Origin: Candidatus Multivoradales bacterium
Lineage (GTDB): Bacteria > Acidobacteriota > Thermoanaerobaculia > Multivoradales > Multivoraceae
Assembly: GCA_965223325.1 (NCBI GenBank)
Contig: CBDCWI010000001.1
Coordinates: forward strand, 1,216,001-1,280,000
Direction of reading: 5' to 3'
Length of the DNA: 64,000 nt
This document shows, in pieces, positions 1 to 41,663 of the stretch. Below the pieces are notes generated by a model, which was given only the letters and a program-made list of their open reading frames with translations, was not told the DNA's origin and did no database searches. A program made the position numbers and the translations under genes. Positions within the stretch are counted from its first letter, which is position 1. Each line of letters starts with the position of its first letter.

Positions 1-2238
1 GTCCAGATCAACCTGGTCACCAAGCGCGGTACCAACGAGTTTCGTGGATCGGCTCGCTTCTACTCGACCAGGCCCGACGGCTACTTCGGCGGCGGACTCA
101 AGCAGTCGCAGGTCGATCTCACCAGCGAGCTCTACGCTCGCAACCCGTATGGCGCCCAGGCGTCGCTCGCCGGCACCCAGACTCGCGCCATCAAAGACAC
201 AGGCTTCGAGGCCGGTGGCGCTCTAGTTCGCGACCACTTCTGGCTTTGGGGCTCCTGGGGTCAGCAGGACATCAAGCAGAACGCCGCCACCGGCTTTCCC
301 GATGACACGATCCTCGAGAACACCGCAATCAAGGCCAACGCCCAGTGGAGCGCCGCCAACTCCGGCGTTGCATCGTTCAACAACGGCGACAAGCTGAAGT
401 TCGGCCGTGGTGCCGGCACCACCCGTCCCGCTGCAACGACCTGGAACCAGCGCGGTCCGTCGGGGATCTACCGCGTCGAAGACACTCACATCTTCTCGTC
501 GAGCCTGTTTGCCACCGGCACCTTCTCGCACCACGACCTTGGTTTCGAACTCGTCGCCCGCAGCCACCTGGCCGACGGAAACGGTCTGGATCCAGCGGCT
601 CGCGACCCACGCTTCATCGGAGGTGCCTGGCAAGACAACTTCCTCTCCGGCGGCACGTCCCGTCCCGCTGATGAGTGGAAGGTCGACACCCAGTACTTCC
701 TGACCACCGGCAAGATGAACCACGAGTTCAAGATCGGTGGCCGCTACCGCGAATTCGAGCAGAACTCCGACTTCAGCTGGGGTCCCCGCAAGACGTTCCA
801 TACAGACTGGAACGACACCGTCTACCACCTCGGCGACACGGGTACCACGACCGCCAAGTACACCTCGATCTGGGCTCAGGACACTCTAGCGATCGGCCGG
901 TTGACCCTCAACGCGGGCCTGCGCTACGACCACCAGACCGGCGACAATGAAAGCCACACACGCGCCGCGCATCCAACCCGTCCGGACATCTTTCCAGAGA
1001 CCACTTTCGGGGGTGGCGATGCCGGCATCGACTGGCGATCCATCCACCCTCGCCTCGGTGCGACCTGGGCCCCGGGTTCGAACCGGACGAGCCTGATCCG
1101 CGCCAGCTTCTCGCAGTTCGCCGACCAGATGGGAACCACGATGATCAACCGCCTGTCCCCGTTCGGCGACATCTATGCCTACACCAACAGCGGTACCGGT
1201 GAGTTCTATGCCGCCCGCGGCTTCAACCCGAACAACCCGGCAGAGGTCGTCAACCAAAACGATCGCGGCATGGACGCTCCAGTCACCACCGAGCTCCTGG
1301 TCGGGATCGAACATGCGATCCTGCCTGAGCTCGTTGTCGGCGCGCACGTCACCGCGCGCAACGTCTCCGACATTCTGGACTTCAGGGATCTCATCGACGA
1401 CGGCCATGGTGTTCGTGCCGCCCGCGGCTGCGCCAACCCCGGCGCCAGCACGGCGACAGGAGCCACCTGTGGTGACTACGAAGTCGTTGGGCATCTCGGC
1501 CCACGGCCCAACGGGACGAACTACGAGATTCCTCGGACCGGACAAACCTACGAGGTTCCGGTCTGGGACCTGACGTCCCCCTGGAACGGTGGCTTCCTGG
1601 CCACCAACGGTGACCGCGAGCGTGACTACCTCGGCTACTCGGTGACCATCACCAAGCGCCTCGCCAACCGTTGGATGGCACGTGGCTATGTCCAGATCGG
1701 TGAAGCCGAATGGGATGTCCCGACCTCCTGGCACCTCAACAACGACCCGAACCACTTCCGCGGTGGCGGCCAGCGCGACGGTGACCTCTACGTGACCCGC
1801 TCGCTGGCAGCCGGCAAAGGCGAACGCTTCCTCCAGTCGACCTGGACATACAACCTCAACGGCATGTACCAGATCGGCCCGGATCGCCCATGGGGCTTCA
1901 ACCTCTCCGCCAACCTCACGGGCCGCGAAGGGCATCCGCTGTTGTACTACCACCGCGCGGCGATCCAGACGAGTTCGTCAACGAACTTCAACGTCACGCA
2001 GGGCGACTTCGACAACCTTCGTCTGGACGACGTCGAAGTCATCGACCTGCGCGTCGAAAAGGAATTCTCCCTGGCCGGCCCGGTCAACCTGACCTTCGGT
2101 ATCGACGTGTTCAATCTGACCAACGAGAACACCGGCCTGTCGTACATCCTGCGCGCAGCACGGCCGAACTCCGGCAACCTCGCCGACAACGTCGCCCCGC
2201 GCGTTTTCCGCCTGGGCGTGCGCCTCGGCTGGAAGTAG
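1..2238 (+). CDS. TonB-dependent receptor (Oar-like/Acidobacterial type), paralog 1, 5' truncated by the window edge
   Basis: Frame 1 reads from base 1 as VQINLVTKRGTNEFRGS (plug-end motif) and is in frame with ORF 715..2238. It has barrel motifs LTLNAGLRYD and GIDVFNLTNE and ends PRVFRLGVRLGWK. Collinear with the receptor at 3572..6505. Confidence 0.93.
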   Translation, partial: VQINLVTKRGTNEFRGSARFYSTRPDGYFGGGLKQSQVDLTSELYARNPYGAQASLAGTQTRAIKDTGFEAGGALVRDHFWLWGSWGQQDIKQNAATGFPDDTILENTAIKANAQWSAANSGVASFNNGDKLKFGRGAGTTRPAATTWNQRGPSGIYRVEDTHIFSSSLFATGTFSHHDLGFELVARSHLADGNGLDPAARDPRFIGGAWQDNFLSGGTSRPADEWKVDTQYFLTTGKMNHEFKIGGRYREFEQNSDFSWGPRKTFHTDWNDTVYHLGDTGTTTAKYTSIWAQDTLAIGRLTLNAGLRYDHQTGDNESHTRAAHPTRPDIFPETTFGGGDAGIDWRSIHPRLGATWAPGSNRTSLIRASFSQFADQMGTTMINRLSPFGDIYAYTNSGTGEFYAARGFNPNNPAEVVNQNDRGMDAPVTTELLVGIEHAILPELVVGAHVTARNVSDILDFRDLIDDGHGVRAARGCANPGASTATGATCGDYEVVGHLGPRPNGTNYEIPRTGQTYEVPVWDLTSPWNGGFLATNGDRERDYLGYSVTITKRLANRWMARGYVQIGEAEWDVPTSWHLNNDPNHFRGGGQRDGDLYVTRSLAAGKGERFLQSTWTYNLNGMYQIGPDRPWGFNLSANLTGREGHPLLYYHRAAIQTSSSTNFNVTQGDFDNLRLDDVEVIDLRVEKEFSLAGPVNLTFGIDVFNLTNENTGLSYILRAARPNSGNLADNVAPRVFRLGVRLGWK

Positions 2239-2670
2239 TTCTTGTGTGCTGGATAGCACACGAACTACTTCTGTCACCCCGCGAAGCGCAGCAAGCTGCG
2301 CCGCTCGACTCGGAACGGAGTCCCGAGCCGGATGGCGGAAGGCAGTAACGATTGGCCCGGGGGGAACCTCCGGCCCCTTTCCTTTTTCGTGCTTGCGCCC
2401 CTTGGCCTCTTGTGTGCCTACTTCTGTCACCCCGCGAAGCGCAGCAAGCTGCGCCGCTCGACTCGGAACGGAGTCCGAGCGGGATGGCCGAAGACAGTAG
2501 AACGATTGGGCCGGAGGGAAACCTCCGGCCCTCTTCTTCTTGTGCTTGCGCCCCTTGGGCTTTTGTGTACCGAATAGCACACAGCTACTTCTACTTCGAA
2601 CACCCCCCGGCCGCAGTGCGGGCAGTGGCCAAGCGCAGCAAGCTGCGCCGTTCAGCTCGAAGCGCCGCTC
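2239..2670. repeat. Tandem ~150-165 bp multi-hairpin repeat (2 copies plus a degenerate third) directly after the receptor 1 stop codon
   Basis: CTACTTCTGTCACCCCGCGAAGCGCAGCAAGCTGCGCCGCTC occurs at 2265 and 2418, with partial copies at 2585 and 2631. Each unit ends in a GC stem with (G)GAGGGAAACCTCC-like core followed by a pyrimidine tract. Confidence 0.9.
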
Positions 2671-2814
2671 GGAGCCAGGAGTCGCACTCCATGCCTCATT
2701 CCCAGAGTCACTACTCCGCGCAAGTCGCCGAAGGCGCGCGCATGAAAGCGCGACGTGCGAAGCACGAGCGCGCGCCCCCCTCACCCCACCGGCCTTCGGG
2801 ACCTCGATCCGAGA

Positions 2815-3096: not shown

Positions 3097-3153
3097 GGCG
3101 CAGTCCACAGACTTCCCCAACCAGCACACCCACCCGAGCCACGAACCAACCAA

Positions 3154-3202
3154 CAACCGACAACCGACAACCGACAACCGACAACCGATAACCGATAACC
3201 GA
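3154..3202. repeat. Heptamer tandem repeat (CAACCGA)x5(TAACCGA)x2
   Basis: Read directly from the sequence; intergenic. Confidence 0.95.
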
Positions 3203-3571: not shown

Positions 3572-6505
3572 ATGAAGAAGAACTTCTTGCGCAGCCCTGT
3601 TCTCAGGAATGCCATCGTTCTCAGTGCCATCCTCGCGCTCGTGTCGACCGGAGCCGTGCTTGCACAGGCCACCGGCAACCTCTTTGTCGAGGTGACCGAC
3701 AGCGAAGGTGCCGCCCTACCCGGCGTGACCATTGTGGTCTCCGGTATCGGCGCAGACAAGACACAGATCACCGATTCCAACGGTGCCGTTCGCATTCTCA
3801 ACCTCGACCCCGGCGTGTACAACGTTGGCGGCGAGCTCGACGGCTTCGGCACCGTCGACTTTCCCGGCGTTCAGGTGAACGTTGGCCGTAACACGGAGAT
3901 CAACCTGACGCTTCAGCCCGCCGTCGAGGAGACCATCACGGTCACTTCCGAGACTCCGCTGCTCGACGAGCGCAAGATCTCGAACAGCACCAACGTCACT
4001 CAGGTCGAACTCGAAAAGATCCCGACCGCACGTGACCCATGGTCTCTCCTCTCACAGACACCCGGTGTCACCGTCGATCGCGTCAACGTGGGTGGCTCCG
4101 AATCGGGTCAGCAGTCGGTATTCCGCGCCTCGGGCGTTGACTCCGACCAGAACGACTTCCAGGTCGATGGCCAGTCGATCACCGACATGGCGGCCACCGG
4201 CGCCTCGCCGACCTACTACGACTTCGATCAGTTTGCAGAGATGTCCTTCACCACCGGTGGAACGGATGTTTCGAAGACCACCGCTGGTGTCCAGGTCAAT
4301 CTGGTCACCAAGCGGGGCACCAACGAGTTCCGTGGCTCCGGTCGCTTCTACTCGACCAAGGCTGGCGGCTACTTCGGCGGCGGCCTCAAGCAGTCGCAGC
4401 CCGATCTGACGAGCGAGCTGTACGCTGGCAACCCGAACGGCGCCCAGACGTCGCTCGCCGGTGCACAGATTCGCGACATCGAAGACATCGGCTTCGAAGC
4501 TGGTGGCGCGGCTGTCCGCGACCACTTCTGGCTGTGGGGCTCCTGGGGTCAACAGGACATCAAGCAGAACGCTGCCTCTGGTTTCCCTGACGACACCATT
4601 CTCGAGAACACCTCGATCAAGGCCAACGCACAGTTCAACGCTGCCAACTCCGGTGTTGCCTCGTACAACAATGGCGACAAGCAGAAGTTCGGTCGCGGAG
4701 CTGGCACGACCCGACCGCCTGAAACCACGTGGAACCAGCGTGGCCCGTCGGCGATCTACCGCGCCGAGGACACCCACGTGTTCTCCTCGAGCTTCTTCGC
4801 CACCGGAACCTTCTCGCACGGCGACTTTGGTTTCGCACTCGCTGCCAAGGGCCATCTGGCCAGCCAGGACGGCCTCGACCCGGCGGCGCGCGACCCGCAG
4901 TTCGTCGATGGTTCCTGGCAGGACAACTACCTGACCGGCGCCAGCTCGCGTCCCTACGATGAGTTCAAGGTCGACACCCAGTACTTCATGACCACTGGCA
5001 ACGTGAACCACGAGTTCAAGATCGGTGGCCGCTACCGCGAGTTCGAACAGAACTCCGACTTCAACTGGGGTCCTCGCAGTACGTTCCATGCTGACTGGAA
5101 TGACACCGTCTACCATCTCGGCTCGACCGGTGTCTCCACCTCGGAGTACAGCTCGATCTGGGCACAGGACACCATCTCACTTGGACGCCTGACCTTGAAC
5201 GCCGGTCTGCGCTACGACAACCAGACCGGGAGCAACGCTGCCTTCACGCGGGCCGCCCATCCAACGCGCCCCGACATCATTCCGACGACCTCGTTCGCGG
5301 GTGGTGACTCTGGGTTCGACTGGACGTCGGTGCTGCCTCGACTGGGTGCGACCTACGCAATCGGTTCAGACCGCTCGACGCTGCTTCGTGCCAGCTTCGC
5401 GCAGTTCGCAGACCAGATGCAGACCGACTGGGTCACCAGGCTGTCGCCTTTCGGCGACATCTACGCCTACACCTACACCGACACCGGCGAGCTGTACAGC
5501 GCGGTCGGATTCAATCCGGACAACCCGGCCGAGGTCGTCAACCGCAACGACTCTGGAATGGACGCTCCGGTGACCACCGAGCTTCTGCTTGGTATCGAGC
5601 ATGCGATCCTTCCCGAGCTGGTGGTCGGTGCCCAACTGACCGCACGTAACGTCACGGACATCCTCGACTTCCGCGATCTCGTCAACGACGGCGGCGTGGT
5701 GCGTACGGCCAATGGCTGCTCGAACCCCTTCGCCAGCACGGGCGTTGGAGCACGGTGCGGCGACTACGAAGTCGTCGACCGTTTGAGCGGGACGATTCCT
5801 CGCACCAACCAGGCGTATGACGTGCCGGTCTGGGATCTCGCAACGCCCTTCACAGGTGGCTTCCTGCTCACCAACGGTCAGCGCGAACGCGATTTCCTCG
5901 GCTACTCGGTGACCATCACCAAGCGCCTCGCGAACCGTTGGATGGCGCGGGGTTTCGTCCAGTACGGGGATTCGGAGTGGGACGTTCCGATGTCGCACTT
6001 CCTGAACAACGACCCGAACCAGTACCGTGGCGGCGGAAACCGTGACGGCGACCTGCACGTCGAGCGTTCGTCTGGCTCTGGCAAGGGCGAGCGGTTCCTC
6101 CAGTCGACCTGGTCCTACAACCTGAACGGCATGTATCAGGTCGGACCCGATCGCCCGTGGGGCTTCAACGTCTCGGCCAACATCAACGGTCGTGAGGGCT
6201 ACCCGATCGCCTACTACCAGCGCTTTGGGCTGGCCAGTGACGCATCGGCCAACATCGACATCATCAATGGTGACTACGACAACATCCGTCAGGATGACAT
6301 CGAGGTCCTCGACCTCCGCGTCGAGAAGGAGTTCTCGCTGACCGGACCGGTCAACATGACCTTCGGCATCGACGTCTTCAACGTCACCAACGAGAACACC
6401 GGCCTGAGCTACATCGCGCGTGCCGCGCGGTCGAACTCGGGCAACCTGGACGACAACGTTTCGCCGCGGATCTACCGCCTCGGCGTGCGTCTCGCCTGGA
6501 AGTAG
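3572..6505 (+). CDS. TonB-dependent receptor with N-terminal carboxypeptidase-regulatory-like domain, paralog 2
   Basis: RBS GAAGGGGAG before ATG 3572. Signal peptide ends AVLA-Q, followed by VTDSEGAALPGVTI, EETITVTSETPLLD, the plug region and a beta-barrel C-terminus PRIYRLGVRLAWK. Confidence 0.95.
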   Translation: MKKNFLRSPVLRNAIVLSAILALVSTGAVLAQATGNLFVEVTDSEGAALPGVTIVVSGIGADKTQITDSNGAVRILNLDPGVYNVGGELDGFGTVDFPGVQVNVGRNTEINLTLQPAVEETITVTSETPLLDERKISNSTNVTQVELEKIPTARDPWSLLSQTPGVTVDRVNVGGSESGQQSVFRASGVDSDQNDFQVDGQSITDMAATGASPTYYDFDQFAEMSFTTGGTDVSKTTAGVQVNLVTKRGTNEFRGSGRFYSTKAGGYFGGGLKQSQPDLTSELYAGNPNGAQTSLAGAQIRDIEDIGFEAGGAAVRDHFWLWGSWGQQDIKQNAASGFPDDTILENTSIKANAQFNAANSGVASYNNGDKQKFGRGAGTTRPPETTWNQRGPSAIYRAEDTHVFSSSFFATGTFSHGDFGFALAAKGHLASQDGLDPAARDPQFVDGSWQDNYLTGASSRPYDEFKVDTQYFMTTGNVNHEFKIGGRYREFEQNSDFNWGPRSTFHADWNDTVYHLGSTGVSTSEYSSIWAQDTISLGRLTLNAGLRYDNQTGSNAAFTRAAHPTRPDIIPTTSFAGGDSGFDWTSVLPRLGATYAIGSDRSTLLRASFAQFADQMQTDWVTRLSPFGDIYAYTYTDTGELYSAVGFNPDNPAEVVNRNDSGMDAPVTTELLLGIEHAILPELVVGAQLTARNVTDILDFRDLVNDGGVVRTANGCSNPFASTGVGARCGDYEVVDRLSGTIPRTNQAYDVPVWDLATPFTGGFLLTNGQRERDFLGYSVTITKRLANRWMARGFVQYGDSEWDVPMSHFLNNDPNQYRGGGNRDGDLHVERSSGSGKGERFLQSTWSYNLNGMYQVGPDRPWGFNVSANINGREGYPIAYYQRFGLASDASANIDIINGDYDNIRQDDIEVLDLRVEKEFSLTGPVNMTFGIDVFNVTNENTGLSYIARAARSNSGNLDDNVSPRIYRLGVRLAWK

Positions 6506-6905
6506 CTTTGTGTGCTGAATAGCACACAGCTACTTCTGTCACCCCGCGAAGCGCAGCAAGCTGCGCCGCTCACCTCGGAACGCCGTTCCGAGCACCGGCA
6601 GCGGGGCGACCGTTAGAAGGATCGGGTCGGAGGGAAACCTCCGGCCCTTTCTTTTGCTTTGTGTGCTGAATAGCACACTGCTACTTCTGTCACCCCGCGA
6701 TGCGCAGCAACCTGCGCCGCTCACCTCGGAACGCCGTTCCGAGCACCGGCAGCGGGGCGACCGTTAGAAGGATCGGGTCGGAGGGAAACCTCCGGCCCTT
6801 TCTTTTGCTTTGTGTGCTGAATAGCAAACAGCTACTTCTGTCACCCCGCGATGCGCAGCAACCTGCGCCGCTCACCTCGGAACGCCGTTCCGAGCACCGC
6901 TAGCG
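6506..6905. repeat. Tandem 151-bp multi-hairpin repeat (~2.6 copies) directly after the receptor 2 stop codon; same family as 2239..2670
   Basis: TTTGTGTGCTGAATAGC starts at 6507, 6658 and 6809. Stems: TGTGTGCT-gaat-AGCACAC, GCGCAGC-aa-GCTGCGC, CGGAAC-gcc-GTTCCG, and terminator-like GGGTCGGAGGGAAACCTCCGGCCC-TTTCTTTT. Confidence 0.93.
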
Positions 6906-7175
6906 GGGCGCCAGCCCCTTCGCCCTGCCACGCGGGCCTCGAATCGAGCGTCGGAATCTGCAACCGGCCTCGCCTGTTGAACGGAAAGCAGTCCTCACAG
7001 GGGGCGTGGAGGCCTCTTCGTCTCGATCCGCGCTTCAGATAAACTGGCATTTCTCTTACGACACCCTCTTCCACTGAGCTTCCCTTCGGCCCTCGCGACC
7101 GATTCGACCCCGAGTTCGCCGCTCCCTGCGGCCCTCCGATCGACGCGCGAGAAGCTGAAACGACGGAGAATTCCC

Positions 7176-8189
7176 ATGTTCAAGCCATCTGTTTTCCAAC
7201 GAGCACGCTTCGCTTCCCTGGCTCTCGGCTGTCTGCTGGTCCTCGCCTTTGGCACGCTGTTCGCCACCGCCGCGAGTGCGCAGCAGTGGGGCGGCAAGGG
7301 GCGCATCACGGGCGAAGTCACCGACACTGAAGGCAACAAGATCGAGGGCGCGACGATCATTCTCGCGATCGATGGCGACGGGCCTCCACCGGTCACGACC
7401 AACAAGAAGGGGCGCTGGGCCAAGGCCGGCGTCCGTGGTGGCCTCTGGGACGTGCGCATCGAGAAAGAAGGCTTCGCGGCGAGCGAGACCAAGGTCCAAG
7501 TCAGCGAATTCGCCACCGGCATCGACCGAGCCCACGTCACAACCAAGCTCGGAACCGGCGGCGGCGGGGCGACTGCGACTGCCGATCGAGACGGCGCGGC
7601 GGAAGACGCTGAAATCGCGGCCGCCCGCACCCTCCTCAATGAGGGCAACAGCCTGCTCGCGGCTGAGGACCTGGACGGAGCGATGGCGAAGTTCAGTGAG
7701 GCGCTCCCTGCTCTCGGCGACGCCGCCAAAGTGCAGGTCATGACCTCAATCGCCCAGATCCAGGTCAACAAGGGTGATTCGGCAGCCGCCGTCTCCACTC
7801 TCGAGAAGGCTCTCGCGATCGATCCTCAGAACATCAACGCGCTCAAGGTCATCAGTCGCGCTCTAAAGAACAGCGATCGTGCCGCCGAGGCCGAGCAGTA
7901 CATCGCGCGCCTTCCCGAGGATCAGCGGGCGGATCCTCAGGAACTCCTGCAGCAGGGCGTCGACGCGTACAACCAGAACGATCTCGACGCGGCCTTCGGT
8001 CACTTCGACGCGCTGGTTTCCGCGGCTCCTGACGATCCACAGGCCTACTACTACCGTGGGCTCGTTGCGATGGCACAGCAGAACAACCCTCAGGCGATCG
8101 CCGACTTCAAGAAGCTGATCGAACTCGCTCCTGCCGACGAGAAGGCGATCGAGGGCAAGCAGTTTCTCGAGTACCTCGAGTCGCAGTAG
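7176..8189 (+). CDS. Secreted protein with carboxypeptidase-regulatory-like (beta-sandwich) domain and TPR repeats
   Basis: Signal peptide (ASA-Q), GRITGEVTDTEGNKIEGATI..TNKKG domain, then TPR motifs (ALAIDPQN, AYYYRGL, FKKLIELAP). Confidence 0.88.
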   Translation: MFKPSVFQRARFASLALGCLLVLAFGTLFATAASAQQWGGKGRITGEVTDTEGNKIEGATIILAIDGDGPPPVTTNKKGRWAKAGVRGGLWDVRIEKEGFAASETKVQVSEFATGIDRAHVTTKLGTGGGGATATADRDGAAEDAEIAAARTLLNEGNSLLAAEDLDGAMAKFSEALPALGDAAKVQVMTSIAQIQVNKGDSAAAVSTLEKALAIDPQNINALKVISRALKNSDRAAEAEQYIARLPEDQRADPQELLQQGVDAYNQNDLDAAFGHFDALVSAAPDDPQAYYYRGLVAMAQQNNPQAIADFKKLIELAPADEKAIEGKQFLEYLESQ

Positions 8190-16409: not shown

Positions 16410-16420
16410 CGACAACCGAC

Positions 16421-19208: not shown

Positions 19209-19466
19209 CGCGGGTCTCTCTGGAGCATGTAGGCCGCCGGAGGTACTAGTTGCGGAACCTTCCGAGACCGGGCCTTCCGAGACTGGGCCTTCCGAGATCA
19301 GAGGGCCGGAGGGCCCCTGGGTCGCTTCAACGTCGGTGGTGGCGCGGCTCTTCCGTCGCCAGTTGACGGGTCTAGGAAGGGTGGGCCCGGAGCTGGTTTC
19401 GAGTGTGAATGAGGATATCAAAGGGAGCCTGCGGGAAGGCTCCTCGAGACTCTGCACCCTGGCGGT

Positions 19467-26350: not shown

Positions 26351-26362
26351 CGCACCACCCAC

Positions 26363-35391: not shown

Positions 35392-36813
35392 ATGAAAGCA
35401 CAACCCATTCCAATTCCCACGACCGCAACGAGACGGTCGCTCGCCCTTCTCTCTGGAGCTGTGGTTCTCGGAGCCTTGAGCCTCAGCACCCCGGCCAACG
35501 CCCAGCTCTCCACCGACGAGGGCTATCGGCTGGTCCGTGACTTGATGGGAGACAGCAAGAAGATCCGGCGCAAGGCAGCCAACCGGCTCGAGAAGGAAGG
35601 CGGCGCGACCTGGGCCGTTCCTGTGGTCGATGCGCTCTTCTTTACACCCTCCATCAACCGGGCCGAGTCCTTCGCCTTCCTCCGCTCTGTGTCGGGCCAG
35701 AACCACGGCAAGCGCTACCTGGACTGGATCGAGTGGGTCGGCGGTGCGGGACTCGAGCCTCCGCCCGGCTACTACGAGTTCAAGCGTTCTCTCCTCGCGC
35801 GCATCGACCCGCGCTACGAGTCGGTCTTCTACGACGGCGCGCCAATGAAGATTCGCTTCGAAGAGATCGTCTCAGGCGGCGTACGACTGAACGGCATTCC
35901 GGCCATTGTCGACCCCGAACAGGTCGCTGCCGACGATGCCGGCTTCATGGCGGCGCGTGATCGCGTCTTCGGCGTCGTCGTCGGTGACGATGTGCGCGCC
36001 TATCCGGTGAAGGTGCTCAGTTGGCACGAGATGCTCAACGACATCGTGGGCGGCGAGCCCATCATGATCTCCTACTGCACCCTGTGCGGTTCGGCGGTTC
36101 TCTACAAAACCGCAGCACCCAACGGCAAGCGCATCGGGTTTGGCACTTCGGGACTGCTCTACCGATCCAACAAACTGATGTTCGACCAGTCGACGCTCAG
36201 TCTGTGGAACAACCTCACCGGAGAGGCCGTCGTGGGCCGGAAAGCCGTCGCGAACTCGCGTCTCGAGATGCTACCGATCGTTTTGACGACCTGGGCAAAG
36301 TGGAAGGACCGACATCCGGAAACCACGATCATGAAGCCGGATCCCGACCTCGAGCGCCAGTGGGGCTTTCGCTATCTCGAAGGCGCGGCCGAGCGAGCGC
36401 GGACCGGCGTATCGTTTCCGGTCTGGCAAAAGAGTGACGCCCTGGCCGGCAACACCGAGGTCTTCGTCCTGCGCGCCGGCTCGGCCACCAGGGCCTGGCC
36501 GCTCGAGCCACTCGCCCGCCGCGGCCTGTTGAATGACCGGGTCGGCGCTCTCGCCGTTCTCCTCCTCGCCGACGAGGCCGGAGGCGTCCGAGCCTACGCG
36601 CGCTCCGACATCTCGTTTTCGATGAAAGACGGCGTCCTGGTCGACGATGACGGCCAACCCTGGAAGATCACCAGCGACCGACTGGAGCCGCCAGGCAACG
36701 AGCAGCGCGCCGATCTCGAAACCCCGGCCAGCTTCGAACGACTTCCTGGCCATGTGGCGTACTGGTTCGGTTGGTACGGCATGGAGCCGGACACGGAGTT
36801 GTGGACTCCTTAG
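35392..36813 (+). CDS. DUF3179 domain protein
   Basis: GG...GIPAI..P, RAYP...WHEMLND, YCTLCGS, FGTSGLLYRSN, YWFGW. Confidence 0.85.
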   Translation: MKAQPIPIPTTATRRSLALLSGAVVLGALSLSTPANAQLSTDEGYRLVRDLMGDSKKIRRKAANRLEKEGGATWAVPVVDALFFTPSINRAESFAFLRSVSGQNHGKRYLDWIEWVGGAGLEPPPGYYEFKRSLLARIDPRYESVFYDGAPMKIRFEEIVSGGVRLNGIPAIVDPEQVAADDAGFMAARDRVFGVVVGDDVRAYPVKVLSWHEMLNDIVGGEPIMISYCTLCGSAVLYKTAAPNGKRIGFGTSGLLYRSNKLMFDQSTLSLWNNLTGEAVVGRKAVANSRLEMLPIVLTTWAKWKDRHPETTIMKPDPDLERQWGFRYLEGAAERARTGVSFPVWQKSDALAGNTEVFVLRAGSATRAWPLEPLARRGLLNDRVGALAVLLLADEAGGVRAYARSDISFSMKDGVLVDDDGQPWKITSDRLEPPGNEQRADLETPASFERLPGHVAYWFGWYGMEPDTELWTP

Positions 36814-36823
36814 CCGAGGGACG

Positions 36824-38314
36824 TCAGCGTTCGATCACGATCGCCTTCTTGCCCACCACCTTCTCGAGTGCCGGTTCACCTTCATCGATCGCTGACCACG
36901 GACCAACGACGAGGACCCGCAGCGCACGCGGGTCGAGGTAGCGGCGGGCGACGTTTTGAACCTGCTTTGCTGTGACGCGGGAGATGTCTCGGCGCCAGGT
37001 CTGCCAGGTCTCGTGCGGGCGCCCGATGAGCTCGTCCTCGGCGTAACGACCGGCAACGTCTTCCGCCGAATCGAAGAGCAACGGGAACGCATCGATCATT
37101 GTCGCTTTCGCGAGCTCGACCTCGTTCTCCGGAACCAGCTCGGTACGCATCTGGGAAACCGTCTCGATCGCCACCTCGACGGCGGCCGCAGCCGAGCCGG
37201 GATCGGTCTCGAGAAAGACCTCGAAGTCACCCTCGGACTCGGTCCCGATACCGAACCCCGCCGATACCCGATAGACCAGTGAGCGCTCCCCGCGCAGGTG
37301 CGCCCGCAAGCGCGAAACAGCTCCACCACCACCCAGGACCTCGGCCATGACCAGAAGGGCCGGGCGATCGCGGTGGCCCCACTCGAGCCTGGCGCCGGGG
37401 TGTCCGAGGGTGATCTTGGCCTGATCGGTGGTGTGCTCACGACGATAGAGGCCAGGGGCCCGAGCCGTCCTGGGAACGGCAGGTCGTACGGTCTCTGGGC
37501 TGGCGGCAGATTGCCGATCGGACTGCGACAGGCTTTCCTCGACGTGCTCCGTAAAGTGCTCCTCGAGGAGCGCGAGCACGGTCTCGGCCTTCACCGCTCC
37601 GGCGACCGCGATGACCATGTTCTCTGGTCGATAGTGGCGACGATGGAACGCAGTCATCGAGTCGCGCGAGATACGGGAGAGTGATTGGGCACTGACCCGC
37701 CGCACTTCGGGGTGCGCGGCTCCCCAGAGCAGCACTCCCCACTCCCGCTCGAGCACACGAAGCGGGCTGTCATTCTCTTGAGCGAGGCTCTGCAGCAGAT
37801 TGCGTTTCGCGAGTTCGAGACGATCGCTCTCGAAGCGCGGAACGAGCAGTGCATCGGCCAGCAAAGCCAGGGCACGATCGAGGTGCTCGGGCGAGCAGTC
37901 CAGTGAGACTCCCGAGCGCCTGTGGCCACCGAACGAGTCGATGTCAGCGCCCAGGAAATCTACCGCTTCGTCGAACTCCAGCGCTGAGAGCTGACCGGCA
38001 CCACCGCGACGCAGCATGGCGCCGGTCAAAGAGGCCAGCCCGACCGCCTCCGGCGGATCGAGAACTCCACCCACACGAACCGCAACGGACACTTCGACCA
38101 GCGGAACACTCCAGTCCGAAACCACCCAGACTGGGGTGCCACTCGACAATTCGAAACGCAGACCATCAACCGGTGGCGGGTCGAACTCCAGGGCTGGCAG
38201 GTCAAGCTCGTCCGGTCGACGCGGAATCGACATTTCCTCGGCGCTCACCGGAACCAGGCCAACAAGCGCTCCCAAGAAGAGCGACAGAGCCAGCGAACCG
38301 AGAGCCCGGCTCAT
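36824..38314 (-). CDS. M16 (pitrilysin) family protein, non-catalytic subunit
   Basis: GLASLTGAML replaces HxxEH; YRPENMVIAVAG, LGGGG..SRL...R....LVY; ATGA overlap with the upstream gene. Confidence 0.87.
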   Translation of the reverse strand: MSRALGSLALSLFLGALVGLVPVSAEEMSIPRRPDELDLPALEFDPPPVDGLRFELSSGTPVWVVSDWSVPLVEVSVAVRVGGVLDPPEAVGLASLTGAMLRRGGAGQLSALEFDEAVDFLGADIDSFGGHRRSGVSLDCSPEHLDRALALLADALLVPRFESDRLELAKRNLLQSLAQENDSPLRVLEREWGVLLWGAAHPEVRRVSAQSLSRISRDSMTAFHRRHYRPENMVIAVAGAVKAETVLALLEEHFTEHVEESLSQSDRQSAASPETVRPAVPRTARAPGLYRREHTTDQAKITLGHPGARLEWGHRDRPALLVMAEVLGGGGAVSRLRAHLRGERSLVYRVSAGFGIGTESEGDFEVFLETDPGSAAAAVEVAIETVSQMRTELVPENEVELAKATMIDAFPLLFDSAEDVAGRYAEDELIGRPHETWQTWRRDISRVTAKQVQNVARRYLDPRALRVLVVGPWSAIDEGEPALEKVVGKKAIVIER

Positions 38315-39903
38315 GGCGAGGAGCCCTCGCGTTCGAGGATGAGGGTTGCCGCGCGTTCCGGCTGAAGGTAGGTGCCCACGACCCGCTGCACATCCTCAGG
38401 CGTCACAGCGCGTGCCGCCTGTGGACCCTTCTGGAGCCAGCGCCAGTCCGAGAGCGCCTCGAAGACCACCAGGCGCAACGCGAACTCGAGCGGTTCCTCA
38501 ACCTGACGGGCGGAGTCTGTAACCAGCCGGTTCTGGACCTTCAAAAGCTCGGTCGCTGATACTTCTTCGCCGGCCAGCCGGTCGAGTTCGGCTCGCATCA
38601 CCTCGAGAACCTGTTCGGCCGACGCCCCGTCGCGCAGCTCGGCGAGCACCGAAAACGAGCCGGCATGACGGAGGGGAGCGTGCTCGGCAGTGACGCTGAT
38701 CGCCGTCTCGCGCTCGAGCACCAGGGCCTTCTGCAGCCGACCCGTGCGCCCGGCGAGCAGCCGTGCCACCACGTCGAGCGCGGCGGCGTCGGGATGGCCA
38801 AACGGCACCGTCTCGAAGCGCAGTTCTGCCGACCCGGCGCAGGCACAGCGGGCCCACATGTCGAGTTCCGGTAGGTGACGAAGGGCAGCAAACCGCCCCT
38901 CCCCGGGGGGTAACTCGGGCTCCGCCGAAGCCCCGCCCTTCGACGAGGCGCCCTCTTGTTCACCGGTTCGATCGAAAGCCTTCGGCAGACGACCGAAGTA
39001 GGCCTTCGCCCAGCGTTCGACCTTCGCACGATCGAAGTCGCCGACGATTGCCGCAACCAGCCGATCGGGACGGTAGTTGTTCTCGAAAAAGCGCAGCGCC
39101 TCGGGCCGGCCGAGTTTCTGCAGGTCTTCTTCGATGCCGATCGACGGCCAGGAGTACGGGTGCCCCGGCCCCCAGAAGGCGCGGCTGAACTGCTCACGCT
39201 CTTCGCCACCCGGCACCGAAGCAATGCGTTGGCGGCGCTCCTCGCTGATCACCTGCAGTTCCTCGAACACCTCACGCAAACGCGGTTCGAGCAAGCGATT
39301 CGACTCCATCCAGAACCACAGTTCGAGGCGCGGCGCCGGCAAGACGAGCCAGTAGGCGGTGAGATCACGCCTGGTCATGGCGTTGACGCCGCGCGCACCC
39401 GAACGCGTGTAGAGGTAGGCGAACTCACCCTTTATGTGAAGGTCGCGCAGTTGAAGCGCCAGCCGCCTGGCGCGCTTGACCAGCGTTTCACGGGTATCTG
39501 CGTCGAGCTGCGGATCGCGCAGTTGTCGAAGCAAGGCGTCCTGCCGTTCGAGCAGCTTGAGCTCGCGCGTCGGTTCGCGAGTTCCGATGGTCGCGGTACC
39601 GTTGAACATGACGTGCTCGAGCAAATGAGCCAGGCCGGTCGACCCCGGTTCTTCGTCGGCTGAACCGGCGCGGACAGCCCAGGCGGTTGCGGTCATCGGC
39701 AGCCCAGGGCGCTCGACGAGCAAGAAGGTCATCCCGTTCTCGAGCACGAAGGAGTCAATCGGTGCAAAGTCGCCGGCAGAAGCCGGAAGCGACGGGTCGC
39801 CCTCTCCACTCTCGGTATTGGCCTGTGCCTCGGTGCGCGCCGCCAACGCAGCAACCATGAGCATGAACAGAACCACGAGCCCCGCTGGTTTGTGCAAGCT
39901 CAC
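38311..39903 (-). CDS. M16 family zinc peptidase, catalytic subunit
   Basis: LENGM, AGSADE, GLAHLLEHVMF (HxxEH), NAMT, EERRQR; GTG start at 39903 overlaps the CRTAC1 TGA. Confidence 0.88.
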   Translation of the reverse strand: MSLHKPAGLVVLFMLMVAALAARTEAQANTESGEGDPSLPASAGDFAPIDSFVLENGMTFLLVERPGLPMTATAWAVRAGSADEEPGSTGLAHLLEHVMFNGTATIGTREPTRELKLLERQDALLRQLRDPQLDADTRETLVKRARRLALQLRDLHIKGEFAYLYTRSGARGVNAMTRRDLTAYWLVLPAPRLELWFWMESNRLLEPRLREVFEELQVISEERRQRIASVPGGEEREQFSRAFWGPGHPYSWPSIGIEEDLQKLGRPEALRFFENNYRPDRLVAAIVGDFDRAKVERWAKAYFGRLPKAFDRTGEQEGASSKGGASAEPELPPGEGRFAALRHLPELDMWARCACAGSAELRFETVPFGHPDAAALDVVARLLAGRTGRLQKALVLERETAISVTAEHAPLRHAGSFSVLAELRDGASAEQVLEVMRAELDRLAGEEVSATELLKVQNRLVTDSARQVEEPLEFALRLVVFEALSDWRWLQKGPQAARAVTPEDVQRVVGTYLQPERAATLILEREGSSP

Positions 39904-41663
39904 CGGGACTCCACCATGTGCAAGTAGCGCCCGGCGGGGGGCTCGAGGACTCGACGCTTGCGACCGTCGGGCCATGCGACCTCGACAGCCGACGGTCTCT
40001 GTCCGGCCTCACCGAGCCCAAAGAGTTGGCGGCGGTCGCTCGATGCCTGGTAGCTACCACCTGCGATCACCCAACGGCGGGCGATCGACCGCGCCGCCTC
40101 TCCGGCCCCGCCGGCGTCCGCGCCCCATTCGAGAGTCACCTGCGCTCCGAGGCTTTCCGTGTTGGGACTCCGACCCTCGAGCGCGACCCCGAGCCAGGCG
40201 TCTTTCGCCTCTCGGCGGTTGATCAACAGGACCGGCGAGCCACCGTTCTCGGTCACCAGGAGATCGAGATCACCGTCGTTGTCGAAGTCGGCCCCTGCGG
40301 CAGCGCGTGAGACCCCGGCTGAAAAGTCGGCCACGACGCAAGGCGACGCTTCGAAGCCTCCTTGCCCGTTTCCCAGCAAGAGAGCGTCGGGCTGCGCGAA
40401 CGACACGTTCTCGCGGGCCGGGCGTTCGAAGATGTGACCATTGGCAACGAACAGGTCGATGGCTCCGTCGAGGTTGAAGTCACCCGCCACCAGACCGAAG
40501 CCAAGCCGATTGAACGACGGCGGACCGAAGCCGCTGGCAGCCGAGGCGTCATCGAAGAACAGGCCACCCAGGTTGCGGTAGAGGGTGTTGGTTTCGACGT
40601 CGAAGTTGGTGACCGCCAGGTCAGGATCGCCGTCGCCCTCGGCATCGAAGAGCGCCAGGCCCATGCCGGCCTCGGGCTTTCCCACCGCGTCGACCGCAGC
40701 GCCTGAAAGCAACGAAACGTCGTCAAAGGTGCCATCACCGCGCCCCCGGAAGAGGAAGTTCGGGGTGAGGTCGTTGGCAACGTAAATATCGAGGTGACGG
40801 TCACCGTCGAGGTCGGCCAGCAGCACACCGAGGCCCTTTCCTCGAGCGCCCGCCAGGCCCGCTGCCTGCGACCTGTCAACGAAGTGACCGTCGCCCCGGT
40901 TGATGAGGAGCCGATCGGCCTGCCCCTCGAAGAGAGCGGGATCGCAGTAGTCGCGCCGGCCCGAGGCTCGGTCGCCGCAGAACAGGTCGGCCGCCTCGTC
41001 GTAATCGAGATAGTGAACGACATAGAGATCGATCCAGGCGTCCCCGTTCAGGTCCCCGGCCGCAATCGCAGACGACCAGGGCCGGGCGCTAGACGGCGTC
41101 GGATCCGTCAGGCGGTCGCTCGCCAACTCGAAGCTTCCCGCCTGATTGATCAGGAGCTCGGTTCCGCCGAAGTGGGCGAGCACCAGATCGCGGTCGCGAT
41201 CTCCGTCGACATCGACGGCCAACACACCCTGGCCATAGCCGGTGTCGCTCGGTGCCACTCCGGGTACTGGCACCAGGCGCCCGCGACCGCGATTGGCCAA
41301 CAGTTGGTGCCCGTGGGCTCCGCTGTCGTTGCCAGTGCCGGCGGTCGACGTTGAACCGGGAAGTTCGCCCGACTGGACGAGGAAGAGGTCGAGCAGGCCG
41401 TCGCCATCGCGGTCGACCCAGGCCGCCCCTGCACCCATGGTTTCCGGCAGGTGACGATCACCGCGGTCGCCGCGGCGATGCTCGAAAGACTCGAGCACGC
41501 GCGCCTCGAACAACGCCTGGTCGCTCCGGCACGGGTCCTCCGCCGCCGCCCCTTCTGGCAGCAAGATCGAGCCAGCGAGACAACTGACGGCAATCGGCGC
41601 AAGAAGCGCCAAGCCAGGCGCCGCTGTGAAGGAACGACCGCGCATTCCCTGATTATCGTTCAT
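39900..41663 (-). CDS. CRTAC1/ASPIC-UnbV family FG-GAP protein
   Basis: LPETMGAG, DxDGDG repeats, FCGD..RDYCDP, EAGMG, GGSYQASSD..FGLG, WPDG. Confidence 0.9.
   Translation of the reverse strand: MNDNQGMRGRSFTAAPGLALLAPIAVSCLAGSILLPEGAAAEDPCRSDQALFEARVLESFEHRRGDRGDRHLPETMGAGAAWVDRDGDGLLDLFLVQSGELPGSTSTAGTGNDSGAHGHQLLANRGRGRLVPVPGVAPSDTGYGQGVLAVDVDGDRDRDLVLAHFGGTELLINQAGSFELASDRLTDPTPSSARPWSSAIAAGDLNGDAWIDLYVVHYLDYDEAADLFCGDRASGRRDYCDPALFEGQADRLLINRGDGHFVDRSQAAGLAGARGKGLGVLLADLDGDRHLDIYVANDLTPNFLFRGRGDGTFDDVSLLSGAAVDAVGKPEAGMGLALFDAEGDGDPDLAVTNFDVETNTLYRNLGGLFFDDASAASGFGPPSFNRLGFGLVAGDFNLDGAIDLFVANGHIFERPARENVSFAQPDALLLGNGQGGFEASPCVVADFSAGVSRAAAGADFDNDGDLDLLVTENGGSPVLLINRREAKDAWLGVALEGRSPNTESLGAQVTLEWGADAGGAGEAARSIARRWVIAGGSYQASSDRRQLFGLGEAGQRPSAVEVAWPDGRKRRVLEPPAGRYLHMVESR

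Follow-up and report, generated by a model that had tools for sequence, protein, structure and literature searches.

A conserved pair of exported proteins, a CRTAC1 propeller and a TPR partner, in a 42-kb neighbourhood of envelope genes

Positions 1-41663 of the window (the whole 64,000-nt stretch of DNA analysed) hold 20 genes and raise the question of whether these form one envelope machine or a neighbourhood of separate units. The first-pass annotation had taken them together as an import/processing or surface-modification machine analogous to a polysaccharide utilization locus. In our analysis the genes, the mostly export-type character of their products and the coupling of CRTAC1 with TPR genes held up; the single 20-gene machine did not.

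Gene content of the region

Pfam and NCBIfam scans of the ORFs revealed two TonB-dependent receptors (TBDRs), five CRTAC1/ASPIC propellers, five TPR proteins (one with a CarboxypepD_reg domain), two Thr-type sulfatase-like enzymes, an M16 pair, and VWA, DUF3179, M12B protease and Y1 transposase genes. All genes named in the earlier list were recovered, and the M12B protease and the transposase, absent from that list, were added. The features are:

1..2238, +, TBDR, 5' end open at the window edge; 75% identical to the following TBDR across 745 aa and in the TBDR BLAST cluster; no Pfam or NCBIfam match
2265..2723, +, tandem array in which every unit (about 153 nt) carries a terminator-like hairpin and a T run; same unit family as 6505-6957
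3572..6505 (ORF opens at 3485), +, TBDR with CarboxypepD_reg, Plug and barrel (Pfam); N-terminus resembling a signal peptide when read from Met 30; no solved relative in the sequence search
6505..6957, +, tandem 151-nt units, 2.7 to 3 copies, hairpin as in the 2265-2723 units (repeat analysis)
7176..8189, +, exported CarboxypepD_reg and TPR protein (Pfam, N-terminus)
8266..10533, +, sulfatase-family (alkaline-phosphatase superfamily) domain fused to TPRs, T-L-P-S-H nucleophile motif (Pfam Sulfatase, 128 bits)
10538..12796, +, second sulfatase-family and TPR paralogue, probable lipoprotein, T-L-P-S-H motif (Pfam, alignment, lipobox heuristic); its ATG directly follows the stop of the upstream sulfatase-family gene
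12824..14626, -, cognate TPR partner (downstream-partner family) of CRTAC1 14628-16415 (partner alignment; separated by 1 nt from the stop of CRTAC1)
14628..16415, -, CRTAC1/ASPIC-UnbV propeller, paired type (Pfam, tree)
16421..17503, -, TPR protein (Pfam); no clear orthologue in the sampled loci
17493..19457, -, diverged TPR protein, start probably internal near residue 84 or 89 (Pfam, N-terminus, alignment)
19467..21938, -, CRTAC1 of the long form, extended at the N-terminus by a helical stretch of about 250 aa; start probably the ATG at 21902 (Pfam, sequence)
21902..23506, -, CRTAC1 propeller, possibly frameshifted (Pfam, N-terminus); its own reading frame encodes no signal peptide
23906..26350, +, exported metzincin of the M12B (reprolysin-like) type, HExxHxxGxxH motif intact, fn3 domain present (Pfam, NCBIfam, motif)
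26634..27593, -, IS200-like Y1 transposase (Pfam Y1_Tnp, 27.6 bits, cutoff 23), lying between inverted REP-like repeats (26351-26458 and 27677-27770)
27823..28960, no strand assigned, 302-nt tandem repeat, 3.7 copies, 93% matches (repeat analysis); no Rfam match
28968..30959, -, cognate TPR partner of CRTAC1 30956-32752, all-alpha superhelix (Pfam, alignment, AF2 model, pLDDT 90.3)
30956..32752, -, CRTAC1/ASPIC-UnbV propeller, paired type (Pfam, AF2 model, pLDDT 89.3)
33058..34710, +, acidobacterial-type VWA protein, charged N-terminal region (TIGR03436, 129.6 bits, cutoff 81.25)
35392..36813 (ORF opens at 35140), +, DUF3179 protein (Pfam, 218.8 bits)
36824..38314, -, M16 subunit that lacks HxxEH at its N-terminus (Pfam, motif)
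38311..39903 (ORF extends to 39975), -, M16 subunit with HLLEH, active type (Pfam, motif)
39900..41663, -, CRTAC1 propeller, probable lipoprotein, first in an operon with the M16 pair (Pfam, lipobox heuristic, junction)

Export-type N-termini, judged by eye, were present in most of the proteins, in agreement with the earlier description of the region as mostly secreted. The Thr-type label of the sulfatases was confirmed by the alignments, in which both TPR fusions carry T-L-P-S-H in place of the C/S-x-P-x-R motif of S1 sulfatases; aligned to 5g2v, the protein at 8266..10533 has Thr where S1 sulfatases carry Cys or Ser. Neither a SusD nor a glycoside-hydrolase domain was detected by Pfam in any of the 24 ORFs scanned, as reported before.

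All five CRTAC1 genes scored above the Pfam cutoffs for both FG-GAP_3 and UnbV_ASPIC. On the minus strand, a run from 23506 to 12824 reads CRTAC1, long CRTAC1, TPR, TPR, CRTAC1, TPR; a second pair reads CRTAC1 30956-32752 then TPR 28968-30959; and CRTAC1 39900-41663 is followed by M16 38311-39903 and M16 36824-38314. Two canonical CRTAC1-TPR pairs are present (14628-16415 with 12824-14626, and 30956-32752 with 28968-30959). The region also has the long-form propeller, which brings a helical arm of its own, another two TPR genes and two propellers without a partner. The start/stop overlaps noted earlier all exist in the sequence (GTGA at 30956/30959 and 39900/39903, ATGA at 38311/38314, TGATG at 21902), but the one at 30956/30959 depends on the start codon chosen, because in the public entry the TPR protein encoded at 28968 is 631 residues long and thus begins at the ATG at 30863.

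CRTAC1-TPR pairing across genomes

The neighbours of CRTAC1 were analysed in the 80 best-scoring CRTAC1 loci of those listed, a non-random sample in which the best match has 49% identity, so that no close relative of the source genome is included; neighbour counts use 78 of these loci. A same-strand TPR gene adjoined the anchor CRTAC1 in 35 of the 78. The TPR detector found no adjoining TPR gene for 43 of the 78 anchors, and 10 anchors lay at a locus edge; Pfam adds TPR neighbours beyond those the detector caught. TPR genes made up 36% of genes at distance 1 (53/147) and 4.6% at distance 3 or more (17/366; odds ratio 11.6, p 1e-18). The TPR gene lies directly after CRTAC1 and, in other lineages, directly before it. 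Of 50 CRTAC1-TPR junctions, 21 were exact 4-bp overlaps; among the other same-strand junctions the figure was 33 of 320 (p 2e-7). Genes were called by our own ORF heuristic with longest-ORF starts, a procedure that exaggerates negative gaps and could generate some of the 4-bp overlaps.

The two families also share their history. Each of the two window partners can be aligned over some 600 aa to partners elsewhere, with common motifs exceeding the generic TPR pattern, and the protein at 12824..14626 has about 30% identity over that length to CRTAC1 partners in other genomes. CRTAC1 and TPR mirror trees correlated with r 0.846, a value reached by 0 of 2000 shuffles, and in locus L018 two paralogous pairs segregate as units. 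Mapped on the CRTAC1 tree, the downstream-TPR label required 13 changes, against a shuffled mean of 22, and 0 of 500 shuffles were as low. CRTAC1 14628..16415 falls within a 16-row clade (support 97) with a downstream TPR gene in 13 rows, whereas the long form at 19467..21938 groups with other long forms in a clade of 6 rows (support 100). TPR Pfam domains occurred in 68 of the 120 best longer CRTAC1 homologues, and our own HMMs identified 65 single-chain CRTAC1-TPR fusions (44 CRTAC1-then-TPR, 21 TPR-then-CRTAC1), plus 2 mixed.

These results show that the pairing is conserved across phyla, translationally coupled, co-evolving and, in many organisms, carried on a single chain. An explanation by mere abundance of CRTAC1, TPR and TBDR paralogues could draw on the mostly heterogeneous non-TPR neighbours of CRTAC1 and on Solibacter usitatus, where PMC3174227 places ASPIC/UnbV, TBDR and VWA among the expanded paralogue families. 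That explanation is already contradicted for the CRTAC1-TPR pair by the fall in TPR share with distance, the excess of 4-bp overlaps, the fusions, the mirror trees and the complex model described below, and we regard it as extremely improbable. Chance also fails to account for the clustering of CRTAC1 in the window, since the 36 loci of at least 20 kb among those listed hold one copy (25 loci), two (8) or three (3), and the window has five in 27 kb.

The wider neighbourhood

A single machine built from all 20 genes has several points in its favour: exported-type envelope proteins occur throughout the 42 kb, and 8 of the 20 genes encode TPR arrays or a helical arm by which an assembly could be held together. 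A DUF3179 gene with 51% identity to that of the window adjoins the closest CRTAC1 relative among the loci listed (L001, divergent orientation), locus L029 has a Thr-type sulfatase-TPR fusion two genes from CRTAC1, and TBDRs lie about five genes or nearer to a pair of the same clade in 5 of 6 Vicinamibacteria loci. On the other hand, the region breaks up into nine or more transcription units that occupy both strands and are interrupted by the transposase and repeat arrays, and its components rarely recur near CRTAC1 in the 80 best loci (sulfatase-like 4, two of them Thr-type; M16 1; DUF3179 2; VWA 1; M12B 0). The earlier proposal that co-localisation would be conserved was, over the long range and in these 80 loci, borne out for the CRTAC1-TPR pair alone; the whole 42 kb recurred in none of them, no close relative of the source genome being included. 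TBDR genes were found within 10 kb of CRTAC1 in 24 of the 78 loci, but near the module they were not significantly enriched (21/334 genes within 4 kb, 8/253 farther, p 0.12) and the signal came mostly from one Vicinamibacteria clade. Fusions of CRTAC1 with TBDR, sulfatase-like, M16, DUF3179, VWA or M12B domains were absent from the 120 best longer homologues. Nor is a SusD counterpart present, either as a domain in the scanned ORFs or as the TPR partner, for which the fold search gives an OGT-like superhelix and not a SusD fold. The analogy previously drawn with FusA/FusC lacks positional support, because the M16 pair is 30 kb from the TBDRs and shares an operon with a CRTAC1 gene; in FusA/FusC receptor and protease are paired.

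The 42 kb is thus probably not one conserved machine, and assembly of all 20 genes into one is unlikely. We read the region as a neighbourhood of nine or more transcription units, with a two-protein module as its conserved unit.

Predicted complex and possible roles

The structure prediction proposed earlier for an adjoining CRTAC1-TPR pair gave an interface. The model of the pair 30956-32752 and 28968-30959 scored 0.83 in all three runs, and the best of three controls scored 0.00. Among solved complexes 116 of 157 attain that mark, as do 2 of 215 mismatched pairs, rates that are only rough here because our own alignments were used. The runs shared at least 84% of contacts, with partner pLDDT of at least 89. 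In the model, which covers TPR residues 60-495 only, the N-terminal half of the TPR protein packs against one side of the propeller. PDB searches returned no similar complex. The predicted interface was not more conserved than the rest of the protein in CRTAC1 (0.396 vs 0.572) or in the TPR partner (0.407 vs 0.377; 1219 of 5000 random residue sets were as high). Adjacency, translational coupling, co-phylogeny, natural fusions and the predicted interface support a functional coupling of the two genes, and their products probably bind each other. The CRTAC1 propeller and its TPR partner are a widespread, unstudied pair of exported proteins.

The best PDB fold match of the model of CRTAC1 30956..32752 was murine CRTAC1 (9etn_A, E 9e-27, TM 0.67/0.72), followed by integrin alpha chains and fungal GlcNAc lectins. 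The propeller carries a UnbV/ASPIC domain at its C-terminus, its DxDxDG loops are of the type usual at calcium sites, and its invariant residues are mainly Asp/Gly loop residues, two Cys and structural Gly/Pro. This set is not obviously catalytic, which argues against the propeller being itself an enzyme, such as a calcium-dependent polysaccharide lyase or redox accessory with the TPR arm presenting substrate. The fold search also listed the PL11 rhamnogalacturonan lyase YesW, but as a weak match (TM 0.27); murine CRTAC1 and the lectins match better. Some neighbours would suit an enzyme: CRTAC1 is flanked by glycoside hydrolases in 7 of the 78 best loci and by multihaem cytochromes in 6, and it lies inside hydrazine-synthase-like clusters in L050 and L051, an arrangement also found in PMC12758564. 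An enzymatic propeller nevertheless seems quite unlikely. Since other CRTAC1 clades adjoin two-component regulators, multihaem cytochromes or hydrazine-synthase-like genes, the family is not bound to one process.

A role in building the envelope or matrix, instead of nutrient reception, would make the pair either a propeller with a TPR scaffold, comparable to BamB/BamD or TolB/CpoB, or a surface adhesin or matrix protein with its assembly partner. Animal CRTAC1 is an extracellular-matrix protein. The TPR proteins gave sub-threshold NCBIfam matches to PrsT, PilW, Tgl, GltE, BamD, YbgF, BcsC and PgaA, the TPR adaptor LbcA ranked 49 among the fold matches, a CRTAC1-PPIase fusion (P0135) and a HEAT-cyclophilin neighbour (L021) were found, and a few loci have glycosyltransferase, acyltransferase or secretin neighbours. 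However, those NCBIfam matches are far under the cutoffs and reflect generic TPR similarity, domain scans found no polysaccharide-export or BAM/Tol genes in the window region, and many paralogues per genome suit diversified binding better than a single housekeeping scaffold. We consider this role rather doubtful.

The reading that we prefer, which taken whole has about an even chance of being correct, is that the region carries a two-protein binding or adaptor module in several copies, set among importers and hydrolases. The carbohydrate genes near CRTAC1 speak for it: glycoside hydrolases lie within two genes in 7 of the 78 loci, and 9 more have other carbohydrate genes. The setting is a soil-type bacterium in which a calcium-type propeller and a helical-repeat partner stand beside outer-membrane importers and secreted enzymes. 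Outside the cytoplasm, propeller and TPR protein would associate 1:1, the propeller binding a polymeric ligand (glycan or protein) and the TPR arm docking the complex to other envelope proteins or holding an extended chain. The several modules of the source genome may capture substrates, which could be cut by the exported hydrolases nearby (the two Thr-type sulfatase-family enzymes with TPR arms, the M12B protease and the M16 pair), and the products may be imported by the two TBDRs. Nutrient capture is accordingly put forward only tentatively as the role of the module.

Gene content of the flagged region

An ORF listing combined with Pfam and NCBIfam scans bore out the inventory that the first-pass annotation had drawn up for positions 1-41663.

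Features of the flagged region
1-2238 (cut by the window edge), + strand: TonB-dependent receptor (TBDR), 75% identical to the second TBDR
3485/3572-6505, + strand: TBDR, with Pfam CarboxypepD_reg (47.9 bits) and Plug (26.7 bits)
7176-8189, + strand: CarboxypepD_reg-TPR protein
8266-10533 and 10538-12796, + strand: two sulfatase-family proteins fused to TPRs (Pfam Sulfatase, 128 and 121 bits)
23506 to 12824, - strand: tight run of CRTAC1, long CRTAC1, TPR, TPR, CRTAC1 and TPR genes
23906-26350, + strand: M12B metzincin with fn3, HExxHxxGxxH at residue 344, four Reprolysin Pfam models above cutoffs
26634-27593, between the first two - strand runs: Y1 transposase (Y1_Tnp, 27.6 bits against a cutoff of 23)
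32752 to 28968, - strand: tight run of CRTAC1 and TPR genes
33058-34710, + strand: VWA protein of acidobacterial type (TIGR03436)
35392-36813, + strand: DUF3179 protein
41663 to 36824, - strand: tight run of CRTAC1, M16 and M16 genes

The G+C content was 62-67% all along the window, and past 41.7 kb the genes formed a housekeeping mix (M48, TrkA/TrkH, GH109-like, enoyl-CoA hydratase, beta-lactamase-family, MatE and others). Rfam gave no match for the whole window at gathering thresholds or for 26300-29000 at E 0.1, a tRNA scan of the window found none, and promoter and terminator scans did not exceed shuffled expectation, a repeated hairpin excepted. The window TBDR had no NCBIfam match at E 1e-5, the SusC/RagA model included. 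PDB sequence searches returned nothing for the TBDR and nothing for the DUF3179 protein, and an Atlas search with the latter recovered DUF3179 clusters only.

All five propellers passed the Pfam cutoffs for FG-GAP_3 (118 to 154 bits) and UnbV_ASPIC (28.7 to 49.9 bits; cutoff 23.4). Their mutual identity of 33-46% marks them as old paralogues. The label 'Thr-type' given earlier to the two sulfatase-family proteins proved correct, since alignments placed T-L-P-S-H at the C/S-x-P-x-R position of S1 sulfatases in both; despite their Pfam Sulfatase domain, both lack the defining formylglycine motif of that family. Peptidase_M16 and M16_C domains were found on both M16 subunits, with HLLEH at residue 117 of ORF 38311-39975 and no N-terminal HxxEH in the other, so that the pair, with subunits of ~450-500 aa of which one carries HxxEH, has the appearance of an M16B heterodimer.

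The start/stop overlaps claimed between neighbouring genes are present in the sequence; that at 30956/30959 needs a GTG start, and the public entry, of 631 residues, begins at ATG 30863. Secretion of the products is indicated by a reading of the N-termini by eye and by a lipobox heuristic. CRTAC1 21902-23506 has no in-frame signal peptide. A signal-peptide-like stretch lies upstream of this gene in another frame (window 21902-23900, - strand), which suggests a possible frameshift, pseudogene or assembly error. Lipoprotein character as a general trait of CRTAC1 proteins and their partners was rejected, the lipobox (own heuristic) being confined to a minority: 23/105 CRTAC1 proteins, 7/26 downstream partners and 4/24 upstream partners, against 14/380 other proteins.

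Three tandem-repeat arrays lie in the flagged region. Downstream of both TBDR genes come tandem units of 151-154 nt (2265-2723 and 6505-6957) that are homologous between the two sites, and each unit contains two small hairpins and a strong, terminator-like GC hairpin with a T run. The 24-nt hairpin is present in three copies in the window against none expected from shuffles, and ORF 2352-3191, which overlies one array, is unlikely to be a gene. A 302-nt tandem repeat (27823-28960, 3.7 copies, 93% matches) separates the Y1 transposase from the 3' end of the TPR gene, and every unit of it ends in a 17-nt word complementary to 28955-28971. The transposase itself (26634-27593) is IS200-like and is flanked by inverted REP-like repeats, doubled on each side (26351-26458 and 27677-27770), where the arms of the inverted repeats measure 31 and 42 nt; by analogy, we take this layout to be that of the REP-associated tyrosine transposases.

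Recurrence of the flagged genes in other genomes

The main result of the analysis is that the region carries several copies of a widespread, uncharacterised propeller-TPR module and is probably not a 42-kb machine. The first-pass annotation had read the 20 genes as one import/processing system; its observation was confirmed and its interpretation partly supported, conservation being seen for the CRTAC1-TPR pair and not for the whole set among the loci sampled.

Genomes were scanned with an alignment of the five window propellers, which matched at least 623 stretches, at least 459 of them encoding relatives. The best 80 loci of these at least 623 stretches (31-49% identity) were analyzed, a non-random sample that includes neither the source genome nor close relatives of it. 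They came from Acidobacteriota, Planctomycetota, Pseudomonadota, Verrucomicrobiota, Poribacteria, Latescibacterota, Rhodothermia and others, and the nearest relatives among the matches listed were Thermoanaerobaculia and Vicinamibacteria genomes. These relatives and the TIGR03436 match place the window in Acidobacteriota by indication. Genes were called with our own ORF heuristic (1005 proteins, the window's included) and classified by BLAST clustering and by phmmer/HMM detectors for which the window proteins served as seeds.

Among the best 80 loci, genes near CRTAC1 encoded sulfatase-like proteins in four, DUF3179 in two, M16 in one and VWA in one, and M12B and Y1 transposase genes in none. 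The Thr-type sulfatase-like form was seen only in two sampled loci, L029 and L038, and the enzyme of a further locus, L014, was a classical C-T-P-S-R one. The TBDR cluster was represented in 24/78 loci, and among genes of at least 200 aa the TBDR share was 21/334 within 4 kb of the module versus 8/253 farther away, a difference that was not significant (p 0.12). The co-localisation with which the first-pass annotation proposed to check its reading was, among these loci, recovered for CRTAC1 and TPR genes, rare for sulfatase-like, M16 and DUF3179 genes and not significant for the TBDRs. The genes of the putative machine are present as described, but its other components seldom recur among the best 80 loci; this rare recurrence, together with at least nine transcription units, the transposase and the three repeat arrays, speaks against a single conserved 20-gene machine. 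Dense clusters of expanded paralogue families should be read with caution and not as single machines.

Two local exceptions were noted. The locus with the closest CRTAC1 relative among the matches listed (L001, 54-56% identity) has an adjoining, divergent DUF3179 gene whose product is 51% identical to that of the window. Within the same CRTAC1 clade, 5/6 Vicinamibacteria loci have a TBDR gene at a distance of up to about five genes. The window TBDRs are most like the TBDRs beside same-clade pairs (~30% identity over the N-terminal 310 aa), a likeness that may reflect only the relatedness of the organisms.

The TBDR and M16 genes had been compared with the FusA/FusC and YddB/PqqL pairs. FusC and PqqL are single long chains. 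As in those systems, the window has TBDRs and exported M16 proteins in one 42-kb stretch; unlike them, its M16 is a split pair of ~500 aa, one with HxxEH, in an operon with CRTAC1. The pairing could not be upheld, since 30 kb and several operons separate the window TBDRs from M16; in the only one of the 80 CRTAC1 loci with M16, no TBDR was called on the 7.9-kb contig. An integrin alpha/beta analogy, in which the propeller would go with the VWA protein, was also rejected, with a window-type VWA gene near CRTAC1 in only one of the 80 loci and no VWA Pfam domain in the 165 neighbours scanned.

The CRTAC1-TPR pair

A same-strand TPR gene was found directly beside the anchor, the CRTAC1 gene of each locus, in 35/78 loci (16 upstream, 16 downstream and three on both sides), ten of the 78 anchors lying at a locus edge. 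TPR genes made up 53/147 immediate neighbours and 17/366 genes lying three or more positions away (odds ratio 11.6, p 1e-18), and Pfam analysis of all 165 unclassified neighbours within two genes revealed extra TPR proteins, overlooked by our detector, in six loci (L025, L037, L041, L053, L073 and L075). By our own gene calls, exact 4-bp overlaps occurred at 21/50 CRTAC1-TPR junctions versus 33/320 other same-strand junctions (p 2e-7), and only 4/50 CRTAC1-TPR junctions had a gap above 30 bp. In a gammaproteobacterial locus (L002), CRTAC1 is followed by six consecutive TPR genes (216-673 aa) with more TPR genes upstream, a stronger build-up than that of the window.

Upstream and downstream partners belong to largely separate subfamilies (best match within class in 39/51). 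The window partners 12824-14626 and 28968-30959 are full-length orthologues of downstream partners elsewhere (~30% identity over ~600 aa), with which they have motifs in common beyond the generic TPR pattern. Propellers 14628-16415 and 30956-32752 therefore have, on the same strand, an adjacent orthologous TPR gene (12824-14626 and 28968-30959, respectively), the definition that we used for the module; propellers 21902-23506 and 39900-41663 do not, the long form 19467-21938 is a doubtful case, and the TPR genes 16421-17503 and 17493-19457 had no clear orthologues among the sampled loci.

CRTAC1 trees were built with FastTree (110 rows) and with IQ-TREE under LG+G4 (108 rows, the long branches L050_8 and L074_2 being left out), and the FastTree clades were reproduced by LG+G4. 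Propellers 14628-16415 and 30956-32752 are members of a clade of 16 rows (support 97), of which 11 carry a TPR gene downstream and two carry TPR genes on both sides; the long-form propeller 19467-21938 belongs to a six-row clade of long forms (support 100), and the two remaining window propellers group with rows that have no TPR neighbours. For 19 propellers and the 19 TPR proteins paired with them, the two trees mirrored each other (r 0.846, matched by 0/2000 shuffles). In locus L018, two paralogous pairs segregate as units, a segregation for which species phylogeny offers no explanation.

Fused forms were found as well. Of 8000 candidates scored, 3290 proteins were longer homologues of 30956-32752 at E 1e-20, and by our count 68 of the best 120 of them carry TPR Pfam domains. 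One natural fusion, P0125, is 1073 aa long. With our own HMMs the best 120 comprised 44 proteins with CRTAC1 then TPR, 21 with TPR then CRTAC1, two mixed and 53 with CRTAC1 only. Many fusions span almost the whole downstream-partner profile, and fused counterparts therefore exist for both gene orders. Among these longer homologues, P0135, a Thermoanaerobaculia protein of 1085 aa with 48% identity to the window propeller, has SurA-type PPIase domains in place of TPRs, and others have an S8 peptidase and a T9SS sorting domain (P0154 and P0212) or a double CRTAC1. The CRTAC1/ASPIC-UnbV family as a whole is very large: at E 1e-30, a profile of the window's clade retrieved 32,087 of 1.84 billion cluster representatives.

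The AF2 model of 28968-30959 (pLDDT 90.3) was a single long TPR superhelix (residues 78-653) with a break near 267-290, and its PDB matches were solenoids of the OGT, SPY, Ctr9 and Ski3 type, with the adaptor LbcA at rank 49. SusD was not among the top 50 fold matches of this model, no SusD Pfam domain was detected in 24 ORFs, and SusD identity or analogy for the TPR partner was rejected by fold. One of the five window propellers, 30956-32752, was modelled (pLDDT 89.3); its best PDB fold match was murine CRTAC1 (9etn_A, E 9e-27, TM 0.67/0.72). Weaker matches were integrin alpha chains, the fungal GlcNAc lectins PVL and AAL2, and the PL11 lyase YesW, the last at a TM of 0.27. An enzymatic role of the CRTAC1-TPR module appears quite improbable.

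The first-pass annotation had also proposed modelling adjacent pairs, and this gave a predicted interface for 30956-32752 and 28968-30959. Residues 40-598 of the propeller were modelled, from our own alignments, together with residues 60-495 of the TPR protein, a segment that shorter partners also have. The predicted interface comprises residues 228-233, 325-337, 376-392 and 422-426 of the propeller and 72-80, 152-156 and 243-294 of the TPR protein. The complex scored 0.83 in three runs, against 0.00 for the best of three controls, with a contact agreement of at least 84% and a partner pLDDT of at least 89. The score mark was reached by 116/157 solved complexes and 2/215 mismatched pairs, counts that are only approximate here because our own alignments were used. 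PDB searches found no similar solved complex, so that a pass from the memory of the model seems unlikely. The modelling supports binding of the two proteins to each other as a prediction. Interface residues were not more conserved than the rest on the propeller (0.396 vs 0.572) or on the TPR protein (0.407 vs 0.377, with 1219/5000 random residue sets as high).

Possible roles and other CRTAC1 contexts

BamB/BamD and TolB/CpoB are envelope pairs of a propeller and a TPR protein. The window pair is like them, by analogy, in that the propeller and TPR genes are encoded together and binding of their products is predicted; unlike them, it has no sequence relationship above family cutoffs, its propeller is of the FG-GAP/CRTAC1 type and there are many paralogues per genome. 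An envelope-scaffold or matrix role of the module is unlikely on present evidence.

With SusC/SusD loci of Bacteroidota, the window has in common a TBDR with N-terminal CarboxypepD_reg and Plug domains and exported helical-repeat/binding proteins nearby, and glycoside hydrolases flank CRTAC1, within two genes, in 7/78 other loci (GH127, GH31, GH13, GH38 with GH29, GH2, GH92 and MGH1-like). It differs in having no SusD domain or fold and no SusC/RagA NCBIfam match, and in TBDR adjacency that is not significant overall. Pfam found neither SusD nor any glycoside hydrolase within 1-41663, as had been stated from the sequence alone, and the region is accordingly not a polysaccharide utilisation locus. 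A single gene of a glycoside-hydrolase family was seen in the whole window; it encodes a GH109-like, oxidoreductase-type glycosidase (46433-47842), ~5 kb past the flagged region.

Substrate capture for polymer scavenging is the most economical reading for this window because two TBDRs and four exported hydrolase genes accompany the propellers, and it is put forward tentatively. A broader proposal is more doubtful: propellers and their cognate TPR superhelices would form an obligate extracytoplasmic receptor complex for widespread substrate capture in Acidobacteriota, Planctomycetota and allied phyla, serving their TBDRs and secreted hydrolases much as Bacteroidota are served by SusD and surface glycan-binding proteins, and in the window several units would be joined into one surface array through the TPR arms of hydrolases and propellers. 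Acidobacteriota, in which CRTAC1 proteins are expanded, are abundant in soil and their nutrient acquisition is poorly understood; substrate capture of this kind, if true, would help to explain the use of complex polymers by Acidobacteriota without SusD-type systems.

We found no paper in the literature that assigns a function to bacterial CRTAC1/ASPIC-UnbV proteins or describes their pairing with TPR proteins. A TPR partner that is dedicated to these proteins, co-evolves with them and is often fused to them is the first concrete handle on this family, and provides a defined, predicted complex to study. Vertebrate CRTAC1 (ASPIC; 9etn) is like the window proteins in whole-chain fold and in the FG-GAP and UnbV_ASPIC signature of all five, but sequence identity is 18% and the bacterial proteins have a dedicated TPR partner or fusion; no function can be transferred from it. 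The Pfam UnbV_ASPIC domain is named after UnbV, and the name 'enediyne biosynthesis protein E4' is borne by two CRTAC1-TPR fusions, P0211 and P0213, from one source; the window has no polyketide genes, and the name is uninformative on function here. Excerpts of two papers list ASPIC/UnbV among the paralogue families of Solibacter (PMC3174227) and report multiple copies in Poribacteria (PMC3909097).

The neighbours of CRTAC1 are heterogeneous, and the family thus looks like a binding/adaptor module serving several extracytoplasmic processes. In 10 loci (L019, L020, L022, L023, L028, L034, L042, L062, L065 and L066) the CRTAC1 gene has a same-strand HisKA_3 kinase gene upstream of it, and in eight of these a NarL/LuxR regulator gene is directly upstream; seven regulator-adjacent CRTAC1 genes fall in one nine-row Terriglobia/Bryobacterales clade. 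This kinase/regulator arrangement, which lacks a TPR gene, represents the second conserved setting of CRTAC1. Carbohydrate genes other than glycoside hydrolases were found in nine further loci, and multihaem cytochromes in six; in L025, L026, L059, L062 and L073, the CRTAC1 gene has as its immediate same-strand neighbour a gene for a multihaem c-type cytochrome, in some cases with TPRs.

A CRTAC1 family gene inside hydrazine-synthase-like clusters of non-anammox taxa is described in an excerpt of PMC12758564. Similarly, a hydrazine-synthase-alpha-like gene adjoins CRTAC1 in two of our loci, L050 (1566-8985) and L051 (8412-10016); the CRTAC1 clade is different from that of the window, which has no hydrazine-synthase-like or cytochrome genes. 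In L050, in keeping with that published description, the hydrazine-synthase-alpha-like and CRTAC1 genes are followed by a gene for a multihaem cytochrome/propeller protein.
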